Source of the DNA: Eledone cirrhosa
Taxonomy: Eukaryota
Assembly (NCBI GenBank): GCA_964016885.1
Contig: OZ024741.1
Location: 32,240,001 to 32,304,000 of the forward strand
Direction: 5' to 3'
Length of the DNA stretch: 64,000 nucleotides
Every line of letters begins with the position of its first letter. Position 1 is the first letter of the stretch. The notes beneath the pieces were generated by a model. The model was given only the letters and a program-made list of their open reading frames with translations, was not told the DNA's origin and did not search any database. Positions 2,168 through 56,790 of the stretch are shown in pieces. A program made the translations under genes and the position numbers.

Positions 2168-2379
2168 CAGGAGAACGTATGACCCCGACGGCAGAGCTCA
2201 AGCCTTTTCGACGGCTAATTCTGGACTAAATTAGAATTTTTAGTCCAGAATTAGCCGTCGAAACGGCTTGAGCTCTGCCGTCGGGGCCATACTTTTTCCT
2301 ATCACCCACTCTACTACCCTAAGTATTGAGTACTTTGGTGCGTTATGGTCCATCTGGATCCTTACCACATTTCCTTCGT

Positions 2380-2381
<2 letters not shown>
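2168..2381 (+). mobile_element. Family A foldback insert carrying HHR 3' half
   Basis: ~60-bp-arm palindrome; GAAAC-ggc..gcc-GTC at 2260-2282; (TA)n on both sides; homologues at 3793, 24059, 26388, 45302. Confidence 0.75.
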
Positions 2382-2458
<77 letters not shown>

Positions 2459-2734
2459 TAAAACATGTCTATAGAATCACCAGATAAAATATATACCGAT
2501 TCCTCTCCCAATTAGCATAATTAACCATATAAAAAATCAATTAAAACCAAGCTATAAGAATAAAGGCTCATATGAAGAAATCTCCGACAAATAACCGAAA
2601 GCAGCCCCTTCGCGGCGGTTACGACGGATCATTTATCGAATATTTCGACAGCATATATAAATTGACCAGATATACAGTCAACTAAACAGAATTAGGTGTA
2701 AAATAAACTAGAAGAAAAGTGAACATATATAATT

Positions 2735-2812
2735 ACCTCTACCATGGTTTCATCTGCATTTTAAGACATCCGATAACATTGGATATCTAGAGCTTCGGAT
2801 TCTTCAGGAAGT
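2735..2812 (-). ncRNA. Hammerhead ribozyme, family B inverted copy
   Basis: Reverse complement of 3237-3314 with one stem II mismatch. Confidence 0.7.
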
Positions 2813-3236
2813 TAGCTCAAATTTAGACAATTAATTTTCCAAAGTGATCGCGCCAAGAATACATTCAAAAATAGCTAAGAATCATGACGTGGCAGCGGTC
2901 AAGTTAGAAAGGATGTGATTAGTTGCTTACGGCTTGTAGGCATTTTGATAGAAAACGCAGCCAAAATTGTATCTCAACCTAACGGGAGATTATTACATAT
3001 AAAGGTTTACATATATATATATATATGAAATCATAAATATATATGTGTTTTGCAACGGGTCACGTTGTGGCTCAATGAAGAATTAATAAATTAAATAATA
3101 ATAAATTATATATCATAAAACATGTCTATAGAATCACCAGATAAAATATATACTGATTCCTCTTCCAATTAGCATAATTAACCACATAAAAAATGGCACA
3201 ATCACTTTTGAAAATTAATTGTCTAAATTTGAGCTA

Positions 3237-3314
3237 ACTTCCTGAAGAATCCGAAGCTCTAGATATCCAATGCTATCGGATGTCTTAAAATGCGGATGAA
3301 ACCATGGTAGAGGT
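3237..3314 (+). ncRNA. Type I hammerhead ribozyme, family B
   Basis: acttc-CTGAAGA-atccg..agatatcc..ggatgtct..cggat-GAAA-CCATGG-TA-gaggt. Confidence 0.8.
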
Positions 3315-3721
3315 ATTTAAATATGTACACTTTTCTTCTAGTTTATTTGACACCTAATTCTGTTTAGTTGACTGTATATCTGGTCAATTTATATATGCTG
3401 TCGAAATATTCGATAAATGATCCGTCGTAACCGCCGCGAAGGGGCTGCTTTCGGTTATTTGTCGGAGATTTCTTCATAGGAGCCTTTTTTTCTTATAGCT
3501 TGGTCTAATTGATTTTTTATATGGTTAATTATGCTAATTGGGAGAGGAATCGGTATATATTTTATCTGGTGATTCTATAGACATGTTTTATGATATATAG
3601 CTCTGATTATTTAATTTATTAATTCTTCATTGAGCCACAAAGTGACCCGTTGCAAAACACATATATATTTATGATTTTGTATATATATATATATGTAAAC
3701 CTTTATATGTATATATATATA

Positions 3722-3792
<71 letters not shown>

Positions 3793-3794
<2 letters not shown>

Positions 3795-3991
3795 CGAAGG
3801 AAATGTGGTAAGGAACGAGATGGACCATAACGCACCAAAGTAGTCAATACTTAGGGTAGTAGAGTGGGTAATAGGAACAAGTATGACCCCGACGGCAGAG
3901 CTCAAGCCGTTTCGACGGCTAATTCTGGACTAAAAATTCTTATTTAGTCCAGAATTAGCCGTCGAAAAGGCTTGAGCTCTGCCGTCGGGGA
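3793..3991 (-). mobile_element. Family A foldback insert
   Basis: Reverse-complement homologue of 2168-2381. Confidence 0.75.
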
Positions 3992-4757
3992 CATATATAT
4001 ATATATATAGCTGAATAAAAGAACAGAGAACAAAAAAACAGAGAGGCAGTACAAATGGTATGGTTTTTAGTTTCACGCTTGGGAGTATATATATGATGCA
4101 GCAATAGATTATGGTGTGTTCTGTAGCTCGTTTGTTCAGAACAATATTGTGATAAATCTAATATCCCATGTTAGGCCTTTGCCAATAATGTCCATTGTTT
4201 CTATAATAACATTTCCCCAATTCATTTTATTTCTAGTTTCAAGATTGTCTTTGAATGGATCCACAGTAAAATTGTTGGCAATGTTTAAAATACGCAATAC
4301 TAAAGTAAATAGTATAGACAGCACTCATTGTAACATGAGCCCTGTTTTTTCTCTGCCTGTTAATTATTACACTTATAGTTTGGATATAAGTCAGTACCGA
4401 TCCTGGAGGGAGACCTAACTCAAAAAGCATTCCATCCATTAACGATACAACATTTCTGCAGTTATACTGTATATTAGGCTACATTATCTATGTATATTTC
4501 TTTTTAAAAGGAAGCGGGTGGTTTCAGAGGGATTTAGCGAATAAATCAAGTAGGCCTCGCTTGGGGATCCAGCTAGATCAGTTGGAGATGGATGAGTTTG
4601 ACACTATCCGCTTGTAGGAGTTTTGAGGACTGTGCCGCCATGAAACTCTCAGGAATAAGTGGGCCAAGAAGAAGAAGAAGAAGAAGAAGAAGAAGAAGAA
4701 GAATGAAGCAAGTCGAGTAATCACAGAAAACATCATTTGTTGACTCAGTTTATGCTT

Positions 4758-10517: not shown

Positions 10518-10695
10518 AGAAAAAGAGATGAAATCGAAAATGCAACTGGAGTCTTATTTTTTTAAAAAATATATATATTTTTTAAAAAAATAAGACTCCT
10601 GTTGCATTTTCGATTTCATCTCTTTTTCTTTATACTTTCACTCGTGTAGGACACCCAGTTATTTTTCATTTTGTAAAAAAAACCTCACTTTCTAA
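10518..10695 (+). repeat. Foldback insert (arms ~55 bp plus tail), same family as 47641-47860
   Basis: Palindrome centred on aaatatatatattt; right arm and tail match ~47720-47858. Confidence 0.8.
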
Positions 10696-21030: not shown

Positions 21031-21203
21031 ATTTATTAAAATAACAGATTAAATTTTAAGCAAAGAATCGCTGCTTTCACCCTTAACGGGATCTTCTAAA
21101 ACTACAAAAGTCAATCTGAGAACGCAGAAGTGAATATTTCGAAAAACGTTAATGGTGAAAGCAGCGATTCTTTGCTTAAACTTTAATCTGTTATTTTAAT
21201 AAA

Positions 21204-22858: not shown

Positions 22859-23290
22859 ACTAGACCTGAAAATGCGCAAGCTCAAAAGAGCCGTAGAATT
22901 TTATAATAAACCTTCAAAGGTGTGGGACTAGAGTTGTTGCTCAAATATATTGTAATCATTATCTATCGTACACTCTGTGGCATCCTTTAAAAGAGATTCA
23001 TAACGAACTCAAGACACACGATAATTATTGAAGCTAATGTTCAATATCTCATGTTTAGTAATGATTAATACGAAATGCACTTAAACCGATTTCTATATTA
23101 TAAATTCACTTAAATAATTATCGTGCCGTCTTGAGTTCGTTATGAGTCTCTTTTTTATAAAAGGATGCCACAGAGTGTACGATAGATAATCATTACAATA
23201 TTTTTGAACAACAACTCTAGTCCCACACTTTTGAAGGTTCATTATAACATTCTGTGGCTCTTTTGGGCTTGCGCATTTTTCAGGTCTAGT
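22859..23290. repeat. Inverted repeat with ~170-bp arms and ~80-bp spacer
   Basis: actagacctgaaaatgcgcaag.. / ..cttgcgcatttttcaggtctagt. Confidence 0.9.
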
Positions 23291-24058: not shown

Positions 24059-24214
24059 AACGAAGAAAATGTGGTAAGCAACCAAGTGGACCATAACGCA
24101 CCAAAGTACTCAATACTTAGGGTAGTAGAGGGGGTAATAGGAACAAATAAGACCCCGACGGCTGAGCTCAAGCCGTTTCGACGGCTGAGCTCAGCCGTCG
24201 GGGTCTTATTTGTT

Positions 24215-24220
<6 letters not shown>
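24059..24220 (-). mobile_element. Family A foldback insert
   Basis: Homology to 2168-2381; hairpin ~24137-24218. Confidence 0.75.
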
Positions 24221-26130: not shown

Positions 26131-26167
26131 TTCTACTGATGAAGGACTAGAATCCGAAACGTTAAGA
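26131..26167 (+). ncRNA. Minimal hammerhead motif in a ~220-bp repeat (homologue ~36910-37125)
   Basis: CTGATGA-a-gga-ctagaa-tcc-GAAA-CG-TT-aaga; AACGTT palindrome. Confidence 0.6.
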
Positions 26168-26387: not shown

Positions 26388-26389
<2 letters not shown>

Positions 26390-26484
26390 GGAACATGACC
26401 CCGACAGCAGGGCTCCAGCCGTTTCGACTGCTGTTTCTGCCGTCGAGGTCATACTTGTTCCTATTACCCACTCTACTACACTAA
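26388..26484 (+). mobile_element. Family A foldback insert, decayed
   Basis: gaccccgacagcag..ctgccgtcgaggtc..ctattacccactctactac. Confidence 0.65.
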
Positions 26485-31211: not shown

Positions 31212-31398
31212 GTTATTCCGGGTTGAATCGGAGGTAACCACCGTAAGTAAGGTACTCAATACATGGCAGAGTATAACAGTTTTAATATAGAAGAGATTCT
31301 ACAGGACTAGAACTGTTTCATTCATTAGAAATCATCAGGAATGAGATTCCTGATGATTTCTAATGAATGAAACAGTTCTAGTCCTGTAGAATCTCTTC

Positions 31399-32201: not shown

Positions 32202-32280
<79 letters not shown>

Positions 32281-32328
32281 ATGAAATGACAGGAGGCTGG
32301 ATTTGTGTAAATCCTTGAAAGGTTTATT

Positions 32329-32386
32329 ATACTATGATCATTTCAATGACCGGGTTCCGTATGAATCCGGTGATATCATCAGGTAT
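32329..32386 (-). ncRNA. Hammerhead ribozyme, left arm
   Basis: Mirror of 34851-34908. Confidence 0.75.
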
Positions 32387-34850
32387 TCGAAATATAATAC
32401 GTGAATGTAATAGGTAAAATCCATGGGGCTGAAAATCGAGACCCGAGGGCGACCGCTATTCTGTTCCTTCAACCTCAGCCGGTCGCCCTGGAGTGACGTG
32501 GCTAAATTTTATAGTATGCTACTACCGGTCAGATGAACGAAAACAGAAAGAGATGGGAGCATAGGTTAACGTCGATCCCATGACACAAGGTAAAAGAAAG
32601 AAAGAAAGGAAGGAGAAGAAGGGGGAAGAAAGAAGAAGAGAAGTCAGGGTTAATGTCAGCTAAAAGAGGAAGGTAACTACTACTGGTCAGATATAGGCAA
32701 GCAAGAGGGGGAAGGAAGATAAGTCTGCGGGAGGAGGAGGGGAGAGAAGGAAGGGAAGAGAGAAGTAGAAAAGTAAGGGTTGATGGCTACAAGAAGGAAG
32801 ATAGAAAGGAAGAGGAAGAAATGTCGATATTAATGTCAGACCACAGTCAAGCCAGGAGTGGCGCGAGAAAATTTTCACAGGGACCCGCATCTTAGCGGAG
32901 ATGAATATATTGGGAGTCAGTGTTTTACAGTGTTTAGACTTCTAGGATGAAGTTAAACAAATTTAATAATCAAGATTCAATATTAAAGAGGTTAGAAAAT
33001 TTAAAGTTCAACAGTTTAACAATTAATTATATAATAGTTCCGATTTGTTCTGTAATTTAAAGGTACTATTTGGCGGTTAAAACAACGGCCGCGCCCCGGG
33101 CCCCATGGCGAATTAAGCCACGCCGAGTATTTTCATTTACTGAAAGAAGGGGAAATTTATTTTTCCAAGCATTGGGACCTGTACCCATTAGCACACGACA
33201 CTAGAATGTCTCCTCCTGAGAACAAAAATTAAACATTACACGACTATATCCCGTACTCTACATCCCACTAGGATAAATTACAGATCTACATAATACAATT
33301 AACGTTTCTTCATAAAAGACTATTTAATTAAACCCCGCAACCCAAAACCTCATAGAAGTTATTTGAATGTCTAATCTTCAATTTTCTGTTTGTTCAATTC
33401 TCAATCCTCTTACTCCTTAGTTTCATAATGTTATTCTGAATTCTTTCAACTTCATCCGATAGAGTTAAGCAAAATTCTAAAGTTCCAACTTTCTGTCGGA
33501 CCGTTGGGTGGGTTTTAGCGGCGGCGCGACCAGCTCCCTGGCGAACGGGCTCACCTGGAGTGCTTGGAAAAATAAATTCCCCTTCTTTCAGTAAATGAAA
33601 ATACTCGGCGTGGCTTAATTAGCCATGGGGCCCGGGGCGCGGCCGGTGTTTTAACCGCCAAATAGTACCTTTAAATTACAGAACAAATCGGAACTATTAT
33701 ATATATCAACCTGAAACTGTTGAGCTTTAAATTTTCTAACCTCTTTAATATGGATTATTAATTTATTAATTTTTTAACTTCATCCTATAAGTCTAAACAT
33801 TGTAACACACTGACCCCCAATATATTCACCTCTGCTAAGATGCGAGTCCCTGTGAAAATTTTGTCGCGCCACTCCTGGCCCGACTGTGGTGTGACATTAA
33901 TATCGACCTTCCTTCCTCTCTCTTTCTATCTTCCTTCTTGTAGCTATCAACCATTACTCTTTTACTTCTCTAAGCTAAATTTTAAAGTTCCAACTTTCTG
34001 TCGGACTGTTGGGTGGGTTTTAATGGCGGCGCGACCAGCTCCCTGGCGAACGAGCTCACCTGGAGTGCTTGGAAAAATAAATTTCCCCTTCTTTCAGTAA
34101 ATGAAAATACTCGGCGTGGCTTAATTCGCCATGGGGCCTGGGGCGCGGCCGTTGTTTTAACCGCCAAATAGTACCTTTAAATTACAGAACAAATCGGAAC
34201 TATTATATAATTAATTGTTAAACTGTTGAACTTTAAATTTTCTAACCTCTTTAATATTGAATCTTGATTATTAAATTTGTTTAACTTCATCCTAGAAGTC
34301 TAAACACTGTAAAACACTGACTCCCAATATATTCATCTCCGCTAAGATGCGGGTCCCTGTGAAAATTTTCTCGCGCCACTCCTGGCTTGACTGTGGTCTG
34401 ACATTAATATCGACATTTCTTCCTCTTCCTTTCTATCTTCCTTCTTGTAGCCATCAACCCTTACTTTTCTACTTCTCTCTTCCCTTCCTTCTCTCCCCTC
34501 CTCCTCCCGCAGACTTATCTTCCTTCCCCCTCTTGCTTGCCTATATCTGACCAGTAGTAGTTACCTTCCTCTTTTAGCTGACATTAACCCTGACTTCTCT
34601 TCTTCTTTCTTCCCCCTTCTTCTCCTTCCTTTCTTTCTTTCTTTTACCTTGTGTCATGGGATCGACGTTAACCTATGCTCCCATCTCTTTCTGTTTTCGT
34701 TCATCTGACCGGTAGTAGCATACTATAAAATTTAGCCACGTCACTCCAGGGCGACCGGCTGAGGTTGAAGGAACAGAATAGCGGTCGCCCTCGGGTCTCG
34801 ATTTTCAGCCCCATGGATTTTACCTATTACATTCACGTATTATATTTCGA

Positions 34851-34908
34851 ATACCTGATGATATCACCGGATTCATACGGAACCCGGTCATTGAAATGAT
34901 CATAGTAT
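34851..34908 (+). ncRNA. Hammerhead ribozyme, right arm
   Basis: atac-CTGATGA-t..accgg..ccggt..t-GAAA-TGATCA-TA-gtat. Confidence 0.75.
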
Positions 34909-35107
34909 AATAAACCTTTCAAGGATTTACACAAATCCAGCCTCCTGTCATTTCATTATAATATTTAACTCCGTAATAGCACCACCAACTACAAAAACAG
35001 ATACGGTTGAACTGCTTTACGTTGAGTACTCTCTATATTATTGCATTACGATTGACCATACGGAATAGACCAGCTCTATACAGTGGTGAACCTCAAACCT
35101 GAATAAA

Positions 35108-35200: not shown

Positions 35201-35520
35201 TATAAGATCAAAAGATTGTTAAAAGAGTTCCATGTATTTTATTATGCGCATTTCAAAAACAAATATCATCATGCAATAACATTTGTGTTTTCATCAGATA
35301 AAATAGGAAGACATGTTATTATTAAATTATAAATATATAAATTACTTTTCATATGTTGATTTAAAACTGCACTATTCACAAGTGTTTTTTAACCTTCATA
35401 TCATGTCTCCCTATTTTATCTGACGAAAACGCAAATGTCATCGCATGATGATATTTGTTTTTGAAATGCGCATAATATAATACATGGAACTCTTTTAACC
35501 ATCTTTTAATGTTATATATA
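35195..35520. mobile_element. Head-to-head pair of Naiad pLTR ends
   Basis: 35343-35515 matches 10319-10492; 35200-35315 is its reverse complement; HHRs at 35235-35305 (-) and 35412-35482 (+). Confidence 0.9.
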
Positions 35521-45301: not shown

Positions 45302-45303
<2 letters not shown>

Positions 45304-45487
45304 CGAAGGAAAAGTAGTAAGGAACCAGGTGGACCATAACGCACCAAAGTACTCAATACTTAGGGTAGTAGAGTGGGTAATAGGAGTAAGTAAGACCCCG
45401 ACGGCTGAGCTCAAGCCGTTTCGACGGCTATTTCTGTGAATTAGCCGTCGAAACGGCTTGAGCTCAGCCGTCGGGGTCTTACTTACT

Positions 45488-45492
<5 letters not shown>
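45302..45492 (-). mobile_element. Family A foldback insert
   Basis: Hairpin ~45379-45492 with ~52-bp arms. Confidence 0.8.
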
Positions 45493-46053: not shown

Positions 46054-47585
<1,532 letters not shown>

Positions 47586-47607
47586 TACGAATATATATTT
47601 ATATACA

Positions 47608-51654: not shown

Positions 51655-51805
51655 TGTGTTTTACTCCGTCAATACATCGATAGGTCCAGCTCCTGGTTGT
51701 GTTGTTAGTCATCTGAGGAACTGGAATCATATGATTCTAGTTGCTCAGATGAATAACAACACAACCAGAAGCTGGACATATCCATGCATTGACGGAGTAA
51801 AACAC
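51655..51805. repeat. Imperfect palindrome with ~75-bp arms
   Basis: Centre aatcatatgatt. Confidence 0.85.
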
Positions 51806-53247: not shown

Positions 53248-53378
53248 ATAGAGTAGAAAACGAAAAATCAGTGATGCATCTAAACTCAATTTATTGTGTG
53301 TTACAATTGTTTCGCCGGCGAAACAATTGTAACACACAATACATTGAGTTCAGTTACATCACTGATTTTTCGTTTTCT

Positions 53379-53385
<7 letters not shown>
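53248..53385. repeat. Spacerless palindrome pivoting on HHR stem II
   Basis: Centre tacaattgtttcgccggcGAAA-CAATTG-TA. Confidence 0.85.
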
Positions 53386-53721: not shown

Positions 53722-53857
53722 ATATGCAAGCGTATAGAGAGTGCAAATGCGTTAGGCATATACAGGACAGTTATGTAGGCCTAGTACTATTGCTTGTTTC
53801 CTAACTAACTGTCCTGTATATGCCTAACGCATTTGCACTCTCTATACTCTTGCATAT
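53722..53857. repeat. Inverted repeat with ~52-bp arms
   Basis: atatgcaag..caggacagtta / taactgtcctg..cttgcatat. Confidence 0.85.
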
Positions 53858-53859
53858 AT

Positions 53860-55047
53860 ATATCAACTAGAAATTGATTGACACATATATATATCTAAAA
53901 TAAACACATGAAACAATCACAGGGGATAATTTGGAAAGTGTGTAAGCACACACAATTAGGTAGGTAACTAATTATATTTTAACTAGAACTTCAAATATAG
54001 ATACCTTTTAAAATGATTAATCCTCCTTGCATATATCTCATTAAATAAATATTTTTCACCATCAGTTTGTAAATCACAGTAGTCAAATTCCGGATTTTCA
54101 ACAAGGGAGAAGATTTAAATATCTGTGTTTACACAGCAAATGCATATCTACGAATGACCCGTCGCACATGTTGCATCTTTTTTTTTAAATATACACATCG
54201 TACCAGCGTCATCCCAGTGGCGTGAATACGATTATCGACAGCTAGAAATAGCAGCCGAGTCCTTTCAACTGAGTTAGCTCTACAATTAAGGGGCCGTATA
54301 TAAGTTCAAGTTAAACTTTAATTAGTTACCTACCTAACTGTGTGTGCTTACACACAATACATTATACCCTGTGATTGTTTCATGTGTTTATTTTAGATAT
54401 ATATATATATGTCAATCAATTTCTAGTTGATATAAAATGCTCGGATATATTCATTGGAATCTTTGAGCATATTCTACAGTGGATATGGCGCATGTCTCTC
54501 GGACATGACACCCTTAATTTAATTTTGGATATATATACGGCCCCTTAATTGTAAAAAGGACTCGGCTGCTATTTCTAGCTGTCGGTAATCCTATTCACGC
54601 CACTGGGATGACACTGGTATGATGTGTGTAGTTTTAAAAAAAGATGCAACACGTGCGACGGGTCATTCGCAGATTTCCATTTGCTGTGTAAACACAGATA
54701 GTTAAATCTTCTCCCTTGTTGAAAATTCGTTTTTGACTGTTATGATTTACCGATTAATGGTGAAATATATTTCTTTAGTGAGATATATACAAGGAAGATT
54801 AATAATTTTAAAAGGTATCTATATTTAAAGTTCTAGTTAAACTTTAATTAGTTACCTACCTGGCTTTGTGTGCTTACACACTTTACAAATTATCCCCTGT
54901 GATTGTTTCATGTGTTTATTTTACATATATATATATATGTTAATCAATTTCTAGTTGATATAAAATGCTCGGATCTATTCATTGGAATCTTTGAGCAATA
55001 TTCTACAGTGGATATGCCGCATATCTCTCAGACATGACACCCTTAAT
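53860..55047. mobile_element. Inverted plus partial-tandem non-coding element, ~525-bp unit
   Basis: 53860-54302 is the reverse complement of ~54533-54962; ~54309-54517 matches ~54835-55047. Confidence 0.8.
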
Positions 55048-55207
55048 ATGCAATATAGATCTATGTAAAAATATTACAAATTATTAGAGGAAATATACAT
55101 ACCTTCACATATACATTCTGTCTTCAGAAATGATGTAGATTTATATATATATATGTGTGTAGATAAATCTACCAAATATATATACTATAAATATGTAGAT
55201 ACATCTA

Positions 55208-55340
55208 CATCATTTCTGAAGAGAGCATGTATATGTGAATGTATGTATATTTCCTTTGATAATTTGTAATATTTTACATAGATCTATATGATATACATAC
55301 TAACCCACATACACATCCTCGAAACGATCGTGAAATGATG
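55208..55340 (+). ncRNA. Hammerhead ribozyme with very long stem II; cleavage triplet reads GUG
   Basis: catcattt-CTGAAGA-gag..ctc-GAAA-CGATCG-TG-aaatgatg; inverted 5' half at ~55053-55140. Confidence 0.75.
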
Positions 55341-56559: not shown

Positions 56560-56790
56560 GCAGGTTTAGCTGGCCACCTCCAAAGTATATCTCGTTGGAG
56601 GTGTCTTGGGTGATTTAATGATAGGGACCCCAGTCCTCTCATCTCATTTCTACAGCTGAATAAACTGGAGCAACGTGAAATAAAGTGTCTTGCTCAAGGA
56701 AACAACACATCACGCTGTCCGAGAATTGAACTCAAAATCTTTCGATTGCAAGTCCAATGCTCTAACTACTAAGCCATGCGCCTTCACATA
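56560..56790 (-). mobile_element. SINE family 2
   Basis: gagcaacgtgaaataaagtgtcttgctcaagg..aactactaagccatgcgcc. Confidence 0.8.

Follow-up and report, generated by a model that had tools for sequence, protein, structure and literature searches.

Head-to-head stubs of a Penelope-like retrotransposon in Eledone cirrhosa: a candidate record of paired reverse transcription from an RNA that would start inside its own hammerhead ribozyme

The window analysed here is a 64,000-nt stretch of the genome of Eledone cirrhosa (contig OZ024741.1, positions 32,240,001 to 32,304,000), an animal genome of 3.0 Gb that is rich in microsatellites. Five palindromic copies of a repeat, family A, lie at 2168, 3793, 24059, 26388 and 45302 and are its sole members across the 64,000 nt. 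All five are real, and each is a head-to-head repeat in which a tailed arm is joined to an inverted, tail-less arm. Positions within the element are counted from the predicted cleavage site of a hammerhead ribozyme, the C of GUC being -1 and the next base +1. The features are as follows.

2168..2243, minus strand: tail-less inverted arm of copy 1, parent about +20 to -57, with inverted stem II loop and private GAAAA
2239..2380, plus strand: tailed arm of copy 1, parent -44 to about +98; in order, stem II 3′ strand, GAAAC (2260-2264), stem III, cleavage C (2282), stem I 3′ strand, tail
2239-2243: 5-nt overlap common to both arms of copy 1
2240..2245, plus strand: initiator-like TTAGTC; the A at 2242 is position -41, the putative capped RNA start
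2381..2456, no strand: (TA)n target run adjoining the tail end of copy 1
3793..3995, minus strand: copy 2, inverted duplicate of copy 1
24059..24219, minus strand: copy 3, arms overlapping by 1 nt, the tailed one reaching -30 and the tail-less one -14
26388..26484, plus strand: copy 4, joined through a 3-nt insertion; the tail-less arm reaches -30, the tailed arm begins at -9 and its tail can be matched to about +37
45302..45492, minus strand: copy 5, arms joined bluntly (0 nt), the tailed one reaching -38 and the tail-less one -35

As a preliminary description of this DNA had stated, all five copies contain the 3′ half of a hammerhead (GAAAC, a 5-bp stem III, GUC and GGGG), and no match to CTGANGA was found inside any of them. 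GAAAC, described as decayed in copy 4, is present there in the tail-less arm only, as the tailed arm begins at -9. The copies at 2168 and 3793 lie as the outer arms of an inverted duplication (96%, with 8 differences over 203 nt); their junctions are identical, and the inverted arm of both carries a private change of GAAAC to GAAAA. They are therefore one duplicated insertion, and the five copies represent four events. The same description had made all copies pivot on the ribozyme's own hairpin. Complementarity within the stem II hairpin was found at the junction of copies 1 and 2 only; copies 3, 4 and 5 are joined by a 1-nt overlap, a 3-nt insertion and 0 nt respectively. Runs of TA flank nearly all family A copies.

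The DNA between copies 1 and 2 is occupied by an unrelated hammerhead-bearing element (2450-3711) of another PLE-like family, with inverted arms at 2450-2855 and 3194-3599 and an extra inverted piece at 2994-3194. It carries canonical CUGAAGA hammerhead motifs at 2807 (minus strand) and 3242 (plus strand).

The window copies are 3′ stubs of a very abundant Penelope-like element (EN+ PLE). A 25-mer from the family A tail has 26,582 exact matches in the genome, and a control had 0. Longer copies extend upstream into the ribozyme half that is absent from the stubs, and upstream of the parent ribozyme lies a 3′ UTR, preceded by a broken ORF that contains an RT motif and ends in a GIY-YIG-like region; we take the LYRDDG motif and the C-terminal YQC..YIG region of this ORF to represent RT and GIY-YIG. 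A direct Pfam scan of three parent ORF fragments, all from broken ORFs, returned 0 families, while Atlas neighbours of the parent ORF at 0.93-0.97 bear HTH_animal, GIY-YIG (21-27% of members) and RVT_1 (13%). The parent tail continues into a 5′ UTR with an ATG at about +190, forming a pseudo-LTR or partial tandem, and the unit is about 3.0 kb long (measured at one locus, L093). Family A thus shows the hallmarks of EN+ PLEs, namely an inverted 5′-truncated copy, a tail at one end and a microsatellite target, and this parent bears out the earlier suggestion that the palindromes are retro-derived stubs of a hammerhead-bearing element. The majority of family A insertions are stubs of less than 250 nt that have a sharp 5′ wall. 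Family A and both of its outer ends were seen in three contig runs, which cannot show RNA starts.

A genome search with a degenerate pattern found 5,646 parent arms that contain the 5′ ribozyme half. The predicted CCCC-core half therefore does exist upstream, with a core of YUGANAA (UUGANAA or CUGANAA) rather than the expected CUGANGA. In the first 100 of the 5,646 arms, position 8 is A in 100/100 and G in 0/100, 76 have U and 24 have C at position 3 (hand count), and all four bases occur at N7. Most of these arms could therefore form a U3-A8 pair, and subfamilies with unpaired C3/A8 make up about a quarter; GAAA and GUC are conserved in the parents. At minimum energy, one parent (L183) folds with stems I, II and III meeting in a three-way junction of type I. 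In 14 parents, stems I, outer II and III are 98.6-99% paired, figures that exclude the mis-registered inner part of stem II; there is one compensatory change and covariation is weak. Rfam gave no hammerhead among the matches listed for the window (150 of 236) or in 101 rows for three parent loci. Arms with the C3/A8 core are abundant and close to each other in sequence, and the abundance of these unpaired subfamilies hints that cleavage may not be needed for spread. Four loci (L260, L284, L047 and L140) carry deletions between internal repeats of the ribozyme or between stem arms, suggesting that RT skips across hairpins.

The outer ends of the insertions are fixed at about +20 and at +98 to +100 (140 arms each among the loci compared), and both lie at TAT, matching the (TA)n target. 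Exactly one tail was present in 36 of 40 insertions, with none in 2 and both arms tailed in 2 (p = 9e-8 against 0.5). The 40 junctions were chosen without regard to tail; a script gave 34/4/2, and two of its 'none' rows were recounted as tailed since the tail is present with an internal deletion. Independent choice of the two ends would allow one tail in at most half of the insertions. A second family, described below, likewise had exactly one tail in 12/12 short pairs. The two arms belong to the same subfamily in 58 of 60 pairs (chance 25%), and both therefore come from one source. The arms of L123 differ at three subfamily-diagnostic sites and those of L086 at one, and the tailed arm of L123 looks chimeric. 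An apparent discordance between arms in the first 30 loci was rejected as a product of selection for likeness to the query.

Inner ends were examined in a position-picked sample, which covers the first 25 Mb of one contig and requires an exact 25-mer match. Of the first 100 matches to the tail on contig 1, 90 were used; they yielded 93 tailed arms, which were parsed against real parent copies. Eight were long and 85 stopped short of -60. A short inverted partner was present in 71, after removal of L141 and L149, two long copies with false short partners, from an initial 73. Inner ends cluster 35-47 nt upstream of the predicted cleavage site, with 107/164 at -47..-35 and 0/164 at -60..-48, and thus define a wall at about -45. 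They are not piled up at the predicted cut site (11/164 in -8..+5). The enrichment of breakpoints at stem II that the preliminary description anticipated is therefore real genome-wide.

The junctions themselves differ between copies. None is predominant, as even the most frequent pair of ends accounts for just 3/71, and the homogeneous copies with one internal junction that characterise a MITE were not found; a single ancestral MITE is thus not the source of the stubs. A related explanation is that long inverted insertions later collapsed by central deletion, or that a few short masters spread in the manner of a MITE. Long inverted pairs are indeed common, and copy 1 was duplicated locally. 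Against this, besides the lack of a dominant junction, the hairpin-annealed junction of copies 1 and 2 has 13 exact matches in 3.0 Gb that span several subfamilies, and deletion accounts for neither the wall nor the extra G described below. We regard this explanation as very improbable.

The preliminary description attributed the palindromes to a single cDNA that snaps back at stem II and primes itself. This is close to a published proposal, since in the accessible part of PMC3846280 the palindromic junctions of PLEs are read as self-priming. The clustering of pivots in the stem II region and the nearly constant agreement of arms in subfamily would suit it. The tailed arm, however, reaches further upstream than its partner in only 25/71 junctions, equally far in 11/71 and less far in 35/71, and in 25/71 the tail-less arm holds at least 3 parent bases that are absent from the tailed arm. 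Bases of the inverted arm that are missing from the tailed arm could not have been made by one cDNA priming itself, and snap-back therefore fails for these junctions. Its geometry fits 1 of the 71 (L156).

Among the 71 junctions the arms overlap by 0-1 nt in 36 and by at least 2 nt in 14, and bases are inserted in 21. Overlaps of 0-1 nt thus make up 72% of the junctions without insertion (36/50), as against 86% under a blunt-join null, and overlaps of at least 3 nt exceed the null (11/50 versus about 7%); microhomology is near that expected by chance. Of the 13 hairpin-annealed junctions, 2 have tails on both arms and 1 has no tail; in the other 10 the loop is in the tail-less arm, the wrong one for self-priming, by 9 to 1. 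Long insertions (46 loci, 20 of them picked as pairs) have breakpoints scattered over 3 kb and their unpaired centre in both orientations, the latter counting against self-priming. Self-priming also leaves the fixed +20 end without a reason, and the divergent arms of L123 do not fit it. Self-priming is consequently the explanation we find hardest to credit; at most, a snap-back step could help to anneal two cDNAs in the rare hairpin class.

The sequence around the wall points to a transcription start. A-41 sits in TTAGTC or TCAGTC, and A-45 in TCATTT, all of which we take to be initiator-like from the initiator consensus. The untemplated base preceding arms that end at -41 is G in 13/20 cases, compared with 14/64 at other ends (p = 7e-4). 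This count excludes two repeats of one locus and 6 ends at which G is the parent base, and sets aside 7 blunt joins at which G can come from the partner arm. The extra G is present on both arms in several junctions. Genome-wide, 6,571 arms have a base other than T before -41, and the first 100 of them, read by hand, gave G 48, C 44 and A 8; long arms with G before -41 number 7. A G is added opposite the RNA cap during reverse transcription, although we found no source for this in the literature searched. Compared by eye with the downstream promoter element consensus, the sequence showed no clear element at +28. Many short arms reach -42..-46, and these need either a second start or chance matches. 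We infer from these features that a capped RNA may start at -41, and less often at -45, inside stem II.

The wall could alternatively be a point within stem II at which RT stalls on a longer RNA, with addition of a non-templated G, two cDNAs still being made and no transcript starting there. In favour of this, the apical loop of stem II (-52..-45) is immediately 5′ of the wall, templates that traversed the region are evident from full-length copies, and 13 junctions use stem II complementarity. Yet the stem is interrupted and its fold is no more stable than those of shuffled sequences (z -0.3); a stall would be expected at the base of the stem (-26), whereas the ends peak 10-20 nt inside it, and the G excess is specific to -41. 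The second family also argues against a stall. This family has an intact CUGAUGA, and its short arms stop upstream of that motif by no more than about 6 nt (about 11 nt in one case), so that its wall lies 5′ of its ribozyme. The pivot therefore tracks something specific to each family and not stem II. We consider a stall unlikely.

The core of the second family has 4,311 exact matches and occurs in the window at 31290-31398, where a short head-to-head insertion has intact CUGAUGA hammerheads in both arms; this insertion was used as a control. Elsewhere (G000:C1:83679791-83699003), hammerheads of this family form a tandem array with a spacing of about 1.07-1.1 kb, 12 copies being on one strand and one inverted, which resembles a retrozyme or satellite.

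The family A stubs are probably abortive insertions made by two-ended priming, run-off at a capped start in stem II and head-to-head end-joining. The endonuclease of the element would cut both strands of a (TA)n site, and each 3′ end would prime at one of the two start sites, the template being a single RNA or RNAs of one source. The cDNAs would run off the capped 5′ end of the RNA, for which the 3′ strand of stem II in the hammerhead is the predicted position, the G before A-41 presumably being the copied cap. Host end-joining would then trim both cDNAs and fuse them head to head. With its start at -41, an RNA would have no 5′ core and could not fold the hammerhead locally, which would explain why stubs keep an uncut GUC and never the 5′ core. 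The preliminary description held that the template was uncleaved at GUC or re-ligated there. That it was not cut at GUC agrees with our analysis; re-ligation is unnecessary for the short class, as its RNA would start without the 5′ core.

A wider proposal is more tentative, and we would not yet lean towards it. Transcription would start inside the element's own hammerhead, so that promoter-started RNAs begin with half a ribozyme and are unable to cut themselves, while the 3′ repeat holds a whole U3-A8 ribozyme. Paired reverse transcription would use two fixed start sites, one for each DNA end, and the dominant product, amounting to tens of thousands of stubs, would be a pair of cap-terminated cDNAs resembling strong-stop DNA. 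If this is true, the RNA's own 3′ end could complete the 5′ half-ribozyme and so join the ends.

Long copies appear mostly to use a different template. Full-length copies had been predicted to end at -41, and mostly they do not. Among 29 displayed copies with an ORF start, the upstream sequence crosses the wall and takes in the whole ribozyme in 19, while just 2 stop near the wall, at -46..-18. The capped -41 RNA is therefore not the main template of full-length copies. Their templates are mostly others, whether read-through RNAs, circular RNAs or RNAs reached by a jump. In roughly a tenth of insertions both arms are long, and these need a template that continues through the whole, uncut or re-joined, ribozyme.

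A retrovirus-like cycle would account for the long copies by treating the short cDNA as a strong-stop intermediate that jumps to the RNA 3′ end via a repeat of -41..-1 left by ribozyme cleavage, the stubs being failed jumps. This is compatible with two-ended priming and run-off, and differs from it for long copies only. Its geometry fits, as the tail runs into the 5′ UTR and ORF start, and full-length copies usually carry an upstream partial repeat. However, the footprint of strand transfer is absent from the long arms, which retain no cap base (G 7, A 6 at -42; G 5, A 7 at -43). Independent jumps would also not make both arms long together, as was found in 6/7 long cases checked against at least 3/85 of the others. 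We judge such a cycle distinctly improbable.

Several other repeats in the window have related structures. An inverted repeat at 32270-34967 has 902-nt arms that are 100% complementary, with CUGAUGA at 32382 (minus strand) and 34855 (plus strand), and looks like a very young two-armed insertion. Minimal hammerhead-like motifs of a further repeat family (CUGAUGA, a short stem II, GAAAC and U at the cleavage position) occur at 26136 and 37003. Further palindromes or inverted pairs lie at 10519-10628, 21032-21203, 22860-23289, 35207-35510, 46204-47596, 51656-51805, 53251-53382, 53725-53854, 53863-54958 and 55053-55289, and possibly reflect the same mechanism in other families. A partial tRNA match at 56719-56776 (minus strand; Rfam 34.8 bits, model positions 8-63) is perhaps the head of a SINE.

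In LINE-1 twin priming the two arms copy different parts of the RNA, whereas the arms of family A copy the same part from two fixed start sites. The two systems would otherwise be alike in that both break ends prime and two cDNAs are joined in inverted orientation (accessible part of bioRxiv 10.1101/2024.12.14.628481). This and the papers that follow are cited from the portions of their text that were accessible. How PLEs make inverted, one-tailed insertions is named as an open question in PMC8557442. The EN+ PLEs described there and in PMC3846280 have, like family A, RT followed by a C-terminal GIY-YIG-like region, pseudo-LTRs and partial tandems, head-to-head inverted copies with a tail on one end, and (TA)n targets. 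Family A differs from them in its tail of about 80 nt, against 30-40 nt, and in consisting mostly of stubs under 250 nt with a sharp 5′ wall; its junctions contradict the self-priming proposed in PMC3846280.

The closest biochemical parallel is PAc, the Anolis Poseidon protein, which in vitro cuts and extends both strands (PMC11167929). Two RT start sites bound the tail, the protein is predicted to dimerise, ribozyme cleavage is not needed, uncut RNA is used and the target is AT-rich. On the mechanism proposed here, family A would resemble PAc in priming on both strands, in two start sites that bound the tail, in an AT-rich target and in the use of uncut RNA. That text maps no transcription start. 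The PAc start site is unrelated to the target and not strand-specific, whereas in family A TAT is common to both ends and the target, and each insertion has one end of each kind. The U3-A8 pair in place of C3-G8 is reported for the type I hammerhead of Schistosoma Cercyon PLEs (PMC4209133), as are nearby motifs on opposite strands; the family A ribozyme shares the U3-A8 core and the type I PLE form, but has a long stem II, a 5-bp stem III and, in about a quarter of arms, an unpaired C3/A8. Transcription of Penelope in D. virilis starts at an initiator inside the pseudo-LTR and an intron follows the start (PMC2377424), to which the predicted family A start is similar. In D. virilis the start lies upstream of the ribozyme and the intron ends at helix I, whereas the family A start would lie inside stem II.

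Earlier work has already described each component of this picture: PLE insertions that are inverted and one-tailed, internal promoters, U3-A8 cores and a pair of start sites. A search of the literature that took in few subscription papers and main texts without supplements turned up neither a PLE hammerhead with a start site inside it nor paired stubs marked by a cap. Nothing on such stubs or such a start site was found in the accessible parts of a 2026 retrozyme preprint (10.64898/2026.07.22.740005) and of an octopus repeat paper (PMC13282606).

The more than 26,000 copies of family A document insertion in vivo in a way that agrees with two-ended priming and is contrary to self-priming in this family, and they link the two RT start sites seen in vitro to the two ends of one insertion. 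The stubs resemble MITEs or microRNA hairpins and may be mis-annotated as such. The natural U3-A8 and C3/A8 cores are suited to asking whether ribozyme activity matters for spread. If the proposed mechanism is true, the stubs record the start site and priming sites of the element in DNA. The transcription start is predicted to the base, and the walls and extra G residues of short copies would offer a means of mapping PLE start sites from DNA alone.
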